This document shows positions 42,718 to 45,682 of a stretch of DNA of 64,000 nt, in pieces. The translations under genes were made by a program, and so were the position numbers. The number at the start of each line of letters is the position of its first letter. Position 1 is the stretch's first letter. The notes below the pieces were generated by a model. It saw nothing but the letters and a program-made list of their open reading frames with translations, was not told the origin of the DNA and ran no database searches. The stretch is from contig JAAYVE010000022.1 in the NCBI GenBank assembly GCA_012517315.1, positions 24,689 through 88,688 on the forward strand. The letters run 5' to 3'. This stretch comes from Deltaproteobacteria bacterium. GTDB lineage: Bacteria; Desulfobacterota; Syntrophobacteria; Syntrophobacterales; Syntrophobacteraceae.

Positions 42718-43095
42718 TCAGCGGTCCCCAGAGGGAATTCCCAATTCGCCCGGCAGGTCGAAAAAAACTTCTTCTGCCAATTTTTTCAGAAATTCCAATG
42801 GGATCTCCTGTTCAATGGATTCGGCGTCCGTTTCCAGCACCTGGCATAGAGCATGGACGAGCCCCTCGTAAAAGTGAACGAGACCGGTGACGCCCCCATC
42901 GGGTTGTCCCATCATGAGAGCTTCTTCAACGGTCATGGTGATGAAAGGATCGTCTCCCAGCTTCAGGGAGGATCTCTTGAGGAGTTCCGGGTAACGGGCG
43001 GGGGGGATGGATGGATTGCCGGCCATCCATCCCAGTTGAAGCAGCACGCAAGTGCAGTACTCGGCCTGTCGGCGCACTTCCTGTGGTGAAAGCAT
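42718..43095 (-). CDS. Hypothetical protein (125 aa) directly abutting the YcaO stop codon
   Basis: ATG 43095 immediately follows the YcaO stop (43096-43098). No motif recognised, and it does not look like TfuA. Confidence 0.6.
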   Translation of the reverse strand: MLSPQEVRRQAEYCTCVLLQLGWMAGNPSIPPARYPELLKRSSLKLGDDPFITMTVEEALMMGQPDGGVTGLVHFYEGLVHALCQVLETDAESIEQEIPLEFLKKLAEEVFFDLPGELGIPSGDR

Positions 43096-44322
43096 CTATG
43101 CTATTTCCTCCTCATGGATATAGAGCCTGTCTCCCCTGCGGCTTCGGTCGAAACAGTAGACCTCCAGTCCGGGAACAATCACTCTGACCGCGGGGATGGC
43201 GACATCCGGCCGGGTGAGATCCACGGCAATGATCCTCCGGATGCCTTTCTCTTGAAGTCTCCCGGCCATGACCTCAATGTCGGAGAGAATATCCGGCGTG
43301 CTCGACGACTCGATGGTACCGAGCGGCTTGCAGACCCTGCCGGAGAAGCGTCCGTCCTCGAGCTCCGCTTCAAGATCGATATAGGAAGTGCTTTGGCGCA
43401 GACCCTGGATTCCGTGCCTTTCCAGGAGGAAAGCCCGTGTGGATGCGATTTCCATAAGGGCGCGGGCCATGGCGACACAGGGATCTAGGTGAGCGCCGAA
43501 CCCGTCCACTGGAATGGCGGATGCGTATTGCAGGTCTCGGGAAAAGGCGGCGATCACAGGTATTCCAAGGTTGGTGGTGATGTCTTTGGCGGTGATCTCG
43601 ATGCTCGCGGCCTGGAATCGCGCCACAAGATCCAGGAGGAACCCATGGTCCGGGATGTCCTCCACGCAGAGGGCTGTGTCCATGGAGTCACGGAACTCGG
43701 CGATGCTCCAGGCGTCTCGTTCCACCACTTCCGCCAGGCCATGGAAGATCGCTTCCTCCATGGTGTTTCCCGAAGCCAGTCCGTTGGTGCTCGTGGAAAT
43801 GGGGCTCAGGGGGTCCAAGGGGAAGGGGTGATAGACGGCGCACGCAGGGACAAGGACACCCTCCTTTGCGAGGAGGTCGTATCCCCAAACCCAGTGAAGT
43901 GGAATCCGCCGCGGGTTCTTGGCGAACCGGGGCAGGATGAGTTCCTGGGGGTCAAGAACGGGGTGATCCCGGACCAGCTCCTGAAAGGAGCCCCGGATGA
44001 GCCGGGAAAGGTATTCATCCCGAAACTCCGATGCGTGGCGTTCGATGGCCTCCATGAGAAGGGAGACTTGGGCCTGGAGCGCTGAAAGTCCCTTGCCCAC
44101 GTGAGTGACAACTGCCTTATCGGGTCTGGTTCTCCGGCAGGTGAATACGGGAATCCCGATCCGGTCCGCACCTGTGGCTTCCCCCATGGAGCGGATGCCA
44201 ATCAGTTCCTTCATCTTCTCGATGAAATCGAGAGTCGCTTGAGGTGTCCTGGATCGGTGGGTCTCGTGAACGTAAACCTTGGGGCACTCTTTGAGGATCA
44301 TCGTGTGCTGTGGAGGTGACAT
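43096..44322 (-). CDS. YcaO-like family protein
   Basis: 408 aa. [53 protein letters not shown] (YcaO ATP/Mg site style). Confidence 0.8.
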   Translation of the reverse strand: [408 protein letters not shown]

Positions 44323-44524
44323 GTGCTCCGTTTCCTCGCGCGAAAAGATTCATGGGGCTGCTGCCGGAGCCGGGGGGTACAACCGTGTTCCTGGGAAAAG
44401 CGCCGGCAAATGGGAATGACCGATAAGGCTTGGAAACGGCATCAGAAAGCCTGTCGGCAGCCGGGGTTATCATCCGCGCCTCTTACACCGGCACGACAAT
44501 GAGGCCGCCGCCGGTGGCATTGAC

Positions 44525-45682
44525 TCAGATGTATCGGTCGCCCAGTTCCGTGATGAGTTGTTCGAGATCCCCGCCCCATTGCGTTTCCAGGTCCCTCCTG
44601 GCTGCCTCCAGCCTGGCCCTAACAGTGGGATTCTGAATGTCCGCAAGGGCGTGCAGGGCCCCTCCCCGACGTCCGAGGCGGTAGAGCAACCGCTCTTCCC
44701 GCGGAAGGGCAAGGTACTTCTCCACCGTGGCCATCATGGCATCCCTGTCCTGGGGGAGGGTTCCCTGCACCTCAGGGAGCAAGTTCATGATGTGGTCCGA
44801 GGTGAGATGGCTGTGGATTCCCTGGAGGGACTGGAGGAACAGGAGGATTTCTTCTGCCGTTTCATCGTCTGAGAGGGGAGTGAAACGCCCCTCCGCCACA
44901 TCCCGGTAGAGGGGCGTGCTCGGGGGGATCCTCAAGCTGCGCAGGCGGATGAAATGAGGGTCAATGGCGTTGAGGACCCTTGCGGTTTCCGTTGCGTGTT
45001 CGTGAGACCAGCGTTTTCCCCCCAAGCCGGGCATGACGTACTCGGAGAGGGTGATCCCTGCATCCTTCACTTTGGTGCCCGCCGCCACGTGTTCTTCCGG
45101 GGTGGCCCCCTTCATGACGAAGCGTAGGACCTGGGGAGAGCCGCTTTCGAGGCCGATGTGGATACGGTCCAGTCCCGCAGTGTGGAGTGCCGCCAACTGC
45201 TCTCTGCTCTTCCTGGCGAGCGTGCTGCTCCGGCCGTAGGAGGTGACCCGCTGGATTCCCGGCACGTTCCGGCGCAGGTACTGAAGTGCCTCGATGAGCA
45301 CATCGTCAGGGAGGATCAGGCTATTGGCGTCCTGAATGAACACTCGTCCGTTTCCGCCAATGTGCCAATAGGCCACATAATGATAGGCACTACCGTAGGC
45401 GGGATCCTTCAGCACCGCGCTGAGCAATGACTGGGTCATTTTCCCGCCGAATCCCATGGCATGGGACTGCCGCTCAAGATCACGGATGATTGCGGAGACG
45501 CTGTCGATGTCTTCCAGGATCTCCCTGAGAGAACGCCTGCTGAACTTCTGTCCTTTGTAAACAGGGCAAAAGGTGCATCGATTCCAGGGGCAGTTGCGGC
45601 TGAAACGCAGGAGCAAACTTCCCGCCTCGCTGGGTGGGCGAATGGGACCCTGTTCAAAGGTGATCATTGATCGGCAATCCAT
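44525..45682 (-). CDS. Radical SAM protein
   Basis: 385 aa. Cys triad in RNCPWNRCTFCPVY, followed by a TIM-barrel-like region (IQDANSL, RIHIGLESGS). Confidence 0.8.
   Translation of the reverse strand: MDCRSMITFEQGPIRPPSEAGSLLLRFSRNCPWNRCTFCPVYKGQKFSRRSLREILEDIDSVSAIIRDLERQSHAMGFGGKMTQSLLSAVLKDPAYGSAYHYVAYWHIGGNGRVFIQDANSLILPDDVLIEALQYLRRNVPGIQRVTSYGRSSTLARKSREQLAALHTAGLDRIHIGLESGSPQVLRFVMKGATPEEHVAAGTKVKDAGITLSEYVMPGLGGKRWSHEHATETARVLNAIDPHFIRLRSLRIPPSTPLYRDVAEGRFTPLSDDETAEEILLFLQSLQGIHSHLTSDHIMNLLPEVQGTLPQDRDAMMATVEKYLALPREERLLYRLGRRGGALHALADIQNPTVRARLEAARRDLETQWGGDLEQLITELGDRYI

Follow-up and report, generated by a model that had tools for sequence, protein, structure and literature searches.

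A YcaO gene and a directly abutting gene for a 125-residue helical protein may together form a protein-backbone thioamidation module that serves one GctA/GctB-like coenzyme A (CoA)-transferase. The pair lies in a 64,000-nucleotide stretch of DNA, here called the window, from a Deltaproteobacteria bacterium of the family Syntrophobacteraceae (GenBank assembly GCA_012517315.1, contig JAAYVE010000022.1, positions 24,689 to 88,688; genome G000, 4.43 Mb, 99.4% complete), where it follows a gene for a radical S-adenosylmethionine (SAM) enzyme. We estimate the probability of this reading at about 0.45; both its chemistry and its target are drawn from sequence relationships. That YcaO and the small protein are functionally tied to the GctAB-like transferase system is, in our judgment, highly probable. 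The conserved partner of the YcaO is this transferase, which is encoded elsewhere in G000. A first-pass annotation of the window had instead set the three adjacent genes in the context of RiPPs, peptides that the ribosome makes and that are altered after translation.

Association of YcaO with a CoA-transferase

We examined 80 loci of the YcaO clade, one genome per species, of which 73 are bacterial; the YcaO tree comprises 77 sequences. The small gene lies directly 3' of YcaO in 38 of the 73 bacterial loci, with a gap of 0–15 nt in most, and most of these 38 loci continue with two PF01144 genes, here called CoATA and CoATB, often followed by an acyl-CoA dehydrogenase gene. Among characterised enzymes, GctA/GctB of Acidaminococcus fermentans (glutaconate CoA-transferase; 1POI) is closest to the linked transferase, and CoATA and CoATB align to it over their full length (1POI_A and 1POI_B; E 6e-50 and 3e-44, respectively). 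The catalytic Glu of the (I/Y)ESG motif is shared, YESG in CoATB aligning to VESG of GctB, and the pair thus belongs to the GctA/GctB-type family I. Unlike GctA/GctB, however, the linked transferase forms a distinct, highly conserved subfamily, with 69–100% identity among its members and at most 42% to any paralogue, and no NCBIfam equivalog exists for it. We know of no post-translational modification of GctAB. A single orthologous CoATA/B pair is present in G000 (contig C14:71506-73475; 82% and 84% identity to the reference pair).

The adjacency is also seen at one archaeal locus. At this locus of a Bathyarchaeota metagenome-assembled genome (L126, 5882-9713), a YcaO gene (44% identity) is divergent from orthologous CoATA/B genes (55% and 63% identity).

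Among 151 Syntrophales genomes, in which the transferase was called as a CoATB orthologue at E ≤ 1e-100, YcaO and the transferase occur together in 57, YcaO alone in 5, the transferase alone in 7 and neither in 82 (odds ratio 134, Fisher p = 1.4e-27; co-occurrence statistics here ignore phylogeny). The YcaO clade is thus found in about 40% of the sampled Syntrophales. The two genes share a contig in 29 genomes, lying within 2.4 kb of each other in 22 and at 13.5–15 kb in 5. Matching subgroups appear in the tree of YcaO and in that of CoATAB, and absences are also shared within families: neither gene is present in G338 (family f101) or G343 (family f71), each of which has family members with the two genes.

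Across the phylum, only four of 301 sampled genomes have a CoATA orthologue (67–83% identity; next best 42%), namely G000, G116, G112 and G210. The small protein is found in three of these four and nowhere else in the 301 (p = 9e-7), and YcaO in two of the four and likewise in two of the 301 overall. YcaO, the small protein and the transferase are all absent from eight sampled genomes of the window's own family and order, so the three genes have been gained or kept together in the G000 lineage, which for YcaO and the transferase represents a joint gain across classes. Where the small gene is missing beside YcaO the link to the transferase persists: in the small-gene-less YcaO subclade, 14 of 16 genomes keep a CoATB orthologue (83–91% identity). 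The small protein is located beside the transferase in 5 of the 16 and is found nowhere in the other 11. The transferase thus occurs by itself, with the small protein but no YcaO, or with YcaO but no small protein, and this nested pattern identifies it as the hub.

Some features of the surroundings are variable. In G000, the CoATA/B genes (L033, C14:66000-79000) are preceded by a gene for a 431-residue membrane protein and lie near genes for a Mg-chelatase-like ATPase and a methylmalonyl-CoA-mutase-like protein; genes of the latter kind are also found near the module in L013. In L070, L079 and L128, the YcaO–small gene pair adjoins a paralogous Gct-like pair (30–35% identity) on the opposite strand, and in L070 the true CoA-transferase orthologue is located about 6 kb further on. 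The archaeal locus L126 has two Cys-rich small open reading frames (ORFs; 79 and 67 residues) after YcaO in place of the helical small protein, which may encode a different helper or a metal-binding partner.

Family placement of the YcaO protein

The YcaO protein of the window contains the motif [25 protein letters not shown] and matches PF02624 over essentially the entire profile (positions 2–325 of 325; E 1.4e-74, 251.8 bits against a cut-off of 25.7), with no extra or fused domain in its 408 residues. Its top NCBIfam model is TIGR03266, the family of YcaOs that thioamidate a glycine of McrA ("methanogenesis marker 1"), with a score of 294 bits that lies below the membership cut-off of 365. 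Scores against TIGR03604 (SagD, thiazole/oxazole-modified microcins; 145.9 bits, cut-off 219.25) and NF040716 (Escherichia coli type; 23.5 bits, cut-off 700) also remain below those for membership. The closest solved structures are MJ1094 of Methanocaldococcus jannaschii (6PE3/6PEU; E 1e-50, residues 21–401) and the YcaO of Methanopyrus kandleri (6CI7), both of them enzymes that thioamidate McrA. E91xxE94R95, E198xxE201R202 and R287...E291 are invariant in an alignment of 12 sequences of the clade and align with MJ1094; from published YcaO structures, these acidic and Arg motifs are presumably ligands of ATP and Mg2+. Thousands of homologues with 50–64% identity come from metagenome bins of Syntrophales, Syntrophaceae and Syntrophobacteraceae, often automatically named "methanogenesis marker 1" or "thioglycine synthase", and the nearest archaeal sequences are 42–44% identical. 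The protein comes from a bacterial clade that is the sister group of the archaeal YcaOs acting on McrA, and its closest characterised relatives are enzymes that modify a protein, McrA, rather than RiPPs, which does not agree with the RiPP setting that had been suggested for it.

The McrA YcaOs (6PE3/6PEU and 6CI7/6CIB) are accordingly the best family and structure match among known systems. Like the window YcaO, they are single-domain proteins of about 400 residues with no E1-like partner, and they act on a metabolic enzyme, not on a RiPP. TfuA is likewise not known from M. jannaschii or M. kandleri. In contrast to them, the window YcaO scores below the family cut-off, has the 125-residue gene at its 3' side and co-occurs with a GctAB-like transferase instead of methyl-coenzyme M reductase, which, as far as we know, is not to be expected in a Desulfobacterota host. 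A bacterial parallel is the YcaO of E. coli, which thioamidates the folded ribosomal protein uL16 without TfuA (Rice et al. 2026, PMC13063428). It is likewise TfuA-independent and its substrate is not obvious from gene context (PMC13063428), but it differs in its length of about 586 residues, its TPR-like dimerisation domain, the lack of a small partner gene and its different substrate. The YcaOs of RiPP pathways, including SagD-type enzymes (TIGR03604) with an E1-like partner, the YcaO–TfuA enzymes of thioamitides and the stand-alone amidine-forming enzymes of bottromycin, share the ATP-grasp-like YcaO domain; some function with no partner fused to them, and radical SAM genes are common neighbours. 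The window locus, however, has no E1-like/Ocin-ThiF gene, TfuA, precursor, protease or transporter, and its YcaO lacks a C-terminal PxPxP.

The first-pass annotation had seen none of the known YcaO partners, and this holds on a wider search: TfuA (PF07812) has no match in the whole G000 genome, the same search giving a match in the positive control, Methanosarcina acetivorans, and no gene for an E1-like/Ocin-ThiF protein lies within about 6 kb of YcaO, a genome-wide search for E1-like partners not having been run. The genes within that distance encode the radical SAM enzyme, two Hsp20 proteins, CbiA and a sigma-54 enhancer-binding protein. Two further YcaO genes of G000, a YcaO–TPR fusion of 580 residues (C34, ~128081-129823, minus strand) and a 570-residue protein with an N-terminal extension of about 240 residues (C59, ~60002-61714, plus strand), are likewise without TfuA.

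On the YcaO tree, 33 loci without an adjacent small gene form a monophyletic subclade, and all or part of it sits among genes for NifS, full-length NifU and CysK-like, MetY-like, MetX-like, CysE-like and MnmA-like proteins (L080, L088-L092, L094, L096, L098-L102, L104-L105, L107, L129-L130). This setting suggests a dedicated sulfur supply for YcaO and fits a sulfur-inserting chemistry.

The 125-residue protein

The 125-residue ORF had been noted as a protein of unrecognised family and a candidate YcaO partner. It has no match in Pfam or NCBIfam; it forms a new family and co-occurs with YcaO, lying directly downstream of it in many loci. The family is very small, with 5 clusters found by word search and 21 by a profile search of 1.84 billion representatives. 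Because homologues exist at 42–66% identity and the fold is predicted with confidence, the ORF is a real gene: the AlphaFold2 model is a six-helix bundle with a predicted local distance difference test score (pLDDT) of 90.1. No fold match for the model was found in the PDB (best E 3, TM-score ≤0.38).

Among 59 aligned members the C-terminal tail is variable and disordered. Strict invariance is limited to a small number of hydrophobic and Ser residues; helix 4 carries a well-conserved (Y/F)EG motif, and G78 is replaced by Ala, Ser or Thr in some members. A CTC motif near the N-terminus, which had been singled out as a hint that the protein might itself be a substrate, is not conserved, many members having Leu in place of C16. 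Nor is C84, at which Ser, Gly or Ala stands in several members. The lack of conservation of these cysteines and the variable, disordered tail indicate that the small protein is not a precursor with leader and core, and that it is no obvious sulfur carrier either. The idea that it carries persulfide or relays sulfur in place of TfuA was considered when C16 and C84 were invariant in 7 sequences and was dropped when they were not in 59. An RRE-like element (RiPP recognition element) or another known fold was likewise rejected, the protein being all-helical with no match in the PDB. It would act as a useful but dispensable helper, such as an adaptor or chaperone.

Candidate sites of modification

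Two positions in the transferase follow the presence of YcaO. G210 of CoATA, in the WRGVG-T loop (WRGVG210T), and C88 of CoATB, in SVC88DQR and 16 residues after the catalytic Glu, are Gly and Cys, respectively, in 32 of 35 sequences from genomes with YcaO. Each of the 8 sequences from YcaO-less genomes departs from this at one or both positions. These residues may mark the modified site, and we regard them as a suggestive lead only. A segment of CoATB resembling the GYDLQDQ motif of McrA (FGYYLQQG) was rejected as a candidate, since it is also conserved in YcaO-less genomes and so does not discriminate.

Proposed function of the module

YcaO requires a peptide or protein substrate, and a subunit of the transferase is the most economical candidate. 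In the proposed mechanism, YcaO would use ATP to phosphorylate a backbone amide oxygen of this subunit, and the oxygen would then be exchanged for sulfide-derived sulfur to give a thioamide, with the small helical protein helping as the substrate's adaptor or chaperone. The TfuA-less enzyme of M. jannaschii works in this way, as does the E. coli YcaO on uL16 (PMC13063428). The chemistry is proposed because the YcaO is homologous to the TfuA-independent YcaOs of McrA, and TfuA would not be needed in hosts that are sulfide-exposed anaerobes. The radical SAM enzyme would be the product of an unrelated Elp3-like gene that merely lies upstream of the pair in this lineage. The identification of a transferase subunit as the thioamidated substrate is tentative, and we hold it to be somewhat less probable than its converse.

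The radical SAM gene and the surrounding locus

The order of genes on the minus strand, radical SAM, a 202-nt gap, YcaO and the abutting 125-residue ORF, is exactly as first described (Table 1). The stop codon of YcaO (43098-43096) directly abuts the ATG of the small gene (43095-43093), and a GGAG lies 4 nt ahead of the YcaO ATG. The gap between radical SAM and YcaO is longer than in relatives, where it measures only 12–94 nt, and no terminator was found in it.

Table 1 Features of the locus, in coordinates of the window
Feature	Position	Strand	Remarks
Sigma-54 enhancer-binding protein	39953-42328	-	PAS-AAA+-HTH_8 (Pfam, NCBIfam)
125-aa helical protein	42718-43095	-	New, very small family; candidate helper or adaptor
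YcaO, 408 aa	43096-44322	-	Full-length PF02624; core enzyme of the proposed module
Spacer between radical SAM and YcaO, 202 nt	44323-44524	-	Without conserved ORF, terminator-like or promoter-like site
Radical SAM enzyme, 385 aa	44525-45682	-	PF04055; resident, widespread gene
105-aa gene, divergent from radical SAM	45925-46242	+	Weak Resolvase-N match
Tandem Hsp20 gene pair	46314-47234	-	Conserved throughout the order, upstream of radical SAM

We are quite confident that the radical SAM enzyme is not a dedicated partner of YcaO. Its orthologues (41–65% identity, full length) occur in 164 of the 301 phylum genomes, compared with two for YcaO and three for the small protein. In YcaO-less genomes of the window's order the gene keeps its flanks, two Hsp20 genes and the divergent 105-residue gene, and farther from that order its neighbourhood is variable. 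It adjoins YcaO in 9 of 77 loci, all of which, including the window, fall in one subclade of the YcaO tree, and in G116 the radical SAM orthologue and YcaO are on separate contigs. Since the gene is widespread, has the same flanks without YcaO and adjoins YcaO in a single subclade, we conclude that the YcaO pair has landed downstream of a resident radical SAM gene and that nothing ties their functions. The role of a RiPP-tailoring partner that the first-pass annotation had suggested for the enzyme therefore falls away. The synteny of the triad, on which that annotation had hinged part of its case, does recur among close relatives, but it is confined to that one subclade.

The enzyme itself has no score that would place it among the RiPP maturases. 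Its NCBIfam matches are all far below their cut-offs and indicate a generic or Elp3/MnmL-like resemblance; it scores 20.3 bits against TIGR03975 (rSAM_ocin_1), well short of the 281.85 required for this RiPP-maturing family, and neither a SPASM domain nor a RiPP-family score was found. The best PDB matches are OxsB and Elp3, at E values of only 1e-6 to 1e-7. Its motif RNCPWNRCTFC (C31-x4-C36-x2-C39) has the Elp3-like spacing C-x4-C-x2-C, not the canonical C-x3-C-x2-C. Present in more than half of the phylum's genomes and without a fixed neighbourhood, it looks like a member of an uncharacterised housekeeping-type family, possibly involved in RNA modification. The 105-residue gene, found at 47–78% identity in L010, L057, L058 and L059 and beside radical SAM both with and without YcaO, may be its true functional neighbour.

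The sigma-54 activator that had been seen downstream on the same strand is indeed present, 389 nt beyond the 125-residue ORF, and probably serves a family III CoA-transferase operon further downstream. In L010 and L056, too, an orthologue (76% identity) comes after the small gene. Conserved membership of the module was considered for the activator and the family III CoA-transferases and set aside, as orthologues are found only in the closest relatives (L010, L056 and L058) and the matches elsewhere are paralogues of 24–33% identity. A sigma-54 promoter for radical SAM or YcaO was also rejected: no -24/-12 site (TGGCAC-N5-TTGCW, ≤2 mismatches) was found near either gene, and matches to the consensus across the window are not above chance. 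Only weak sigma-70-like sites are present, upstream of radical SAM.

Evidence against the module and alternative explanations

Several observations weigh against a thioamidation module that serves the transferase: (i) The window itself contains no orthologue of the CoA-transferase, the pair being on another contig, and about half of the genomes show no linkage between YcaO and the transferase. (ii) The five YcaO-positive Syntrophales genomes counted above have no transferase at the threshold used. (iii) Seven Syntrophales genomes carry the transferase without YcaO, so the transferase works without YcaO; it exists alone in G210 and six further genomes. (iv) The complete genome G112 encodes the small protein and the transferase and no YcaO at all. 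(v) The co-occurrence is partly phylogenetic, as the same eight families carry both genes. (vi) The contrast at G210 and C88 represents about five independent lineages (3–5 contrasts) and fails a phylogenetically controlled sign test, and the Bathyarchaeota orthologue deviates at both sites. (vii) The YcaO falls short of the TIGR03266 cut-off and so might catalyse something other than thioamidation. (viii) No invariant Cys or catalytic-looking residue is present among the aligned small proteins, the role of which is guesswork. (ix) Radical SAM and YcaO may be co-transcribed here, given that the gap between them has no terminator.

The first two of these points would also be expected if the YcaO modified some other, unlinked protein and its association with the transferase reflected a shared lineage, niche or regulon. 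The 33-locus subclade, which sits among sulfur-assimilation genes instead, can be taken in the same sense, and the genes of known protein-modifying YcaOs lie apart from those of their substrates (PMC13063428). Against it stand the 22 of 57 co-occurring genomes in which the genes lie within 2.4 kb in the order YcaO-small-CoATA-CoATB, and the same adjacency at the archaeal locus; the G000 lineage, moreover, gained all three genes where its relatives have none, and G338 and G343 lack both genes that other members of their families carry. We consider an unlinked target unlikely. A metabolic role, in which YcaO might, for example, spend ATP to activate an amide or carboxylate group on a small-molecule substrate of the transferase and the acyl-CoA dehydrogenase, draws on the resemblance of the order YcaO-small-CoATA-CoATB-acyl-CoA dehydrogenase to a catabolic operon and on the fact that the transferase functions without YcaO in some genomes. 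It would be without small-molecule precedent, as all characterised YcaOs act on a peptide or protein backbone (PMC13063428), and the similarity of the YcaO to the archaeal enzymes, one of which has an adjacent TfuA, also speaks against it; we consider such a role very improbable.

The 125-residue protein might itself be the substrate, serving the CoA-transferase as a small accessory subunit or as a regulator and becoming thioamidated where YcaO is present. Its abutting position, its restriction to transferase-bearing genomes and the conserved (Y/F)EG motif are consistent with this, and its presence with the transferase in the YcaO-less G112 fits a function of its own. But it is absent from 11 of the 16 genomes of the small-gene-less YcaO subclade, 14 of which keep the transferase, and from L061, L103 and the Bathyarchaeota locus, so YcaO must have another substrate there. 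Strictly invariant residues are few, even G78 being replaceable, and a tightly packed bundle of helices would not suit a YcaO well as a substrate. We therefore think it rather improbable that this protein is the target. Still less credit is due to a RiPP cluster, in which radical SAM and YcaO would tailor a peptide, with the 125-residue protein as precursor or as a new recognition partner, to give a secreted or bioactive product. Three adjacent genes on one strand with no terminator between them, a triad that recurs in L002, L005, L010, L012, L034, L035 and L056-L060/L063, and the well-established pairing of YcaO and radical SAM enzymes in RiPP pathways all invited that interpretation. The distribution data largely refute it: radical SAM is far more widespread than YcaO, keeps its flanks in genomes without it, adjoins it in one subclade only and is on a different contig in G116. 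The features of the enzymes point the same way, the radical SAM protein having no SPASM domain or RiPP-family score and the YcaO being nearest to protein-modifying YcaOs. There is no conserved short ORF, protease or exporter at the locus; the earlier impression that no precursor is encoded was borne out by tblastn of 18 ORFs of at least 15 residues in the three gaps against 10 related loci, in which only the opposite-strand 105-residue gene was conserved. The compact six-helix fold with a variable, disordered tail has no leader/core architecture. Such a cluster is highly unlikely.

Implications

Only McrA and, since 2026, uL16 are known to carry backbone thioamides made by YcaO, and more protein substrates are expected by the authors of the latter study (PMC13063428). 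No description of a YcaO/CoA-transferase module was found in the literature searched. The thioamidation module proposed here could represent a third class of protein thioamide made by YcaO, in which a CoA-transferase of syntrophic Desulfobacterota and at least one Bathyarchaeota lineage would be modified at G210 or C88 with the aid of a six-helix helper of 115–125 residues, tuning CoA-thioester transfer in anaerobes short of energy; in this full form the proposal is speculative, and we would put it well short of even odds.

What had appeared to be an orphan YcaO without partners now belongs to a coherent clade linked to one CoA-transferase subfamily and to a new helper without a solved fold. 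The locus also offers a caution, in that the adjacency of YcaO and radical SAM genes is insufficient for calling a RiPP cluster. If the proposal is correct, the module would provide a second TfuA-independent bacterial system for studying sulfur delivery, and backbone thioamidation would tune a central CoA-ester enzyme in syntrophic anaerobes that live at the thermodynamic limit.

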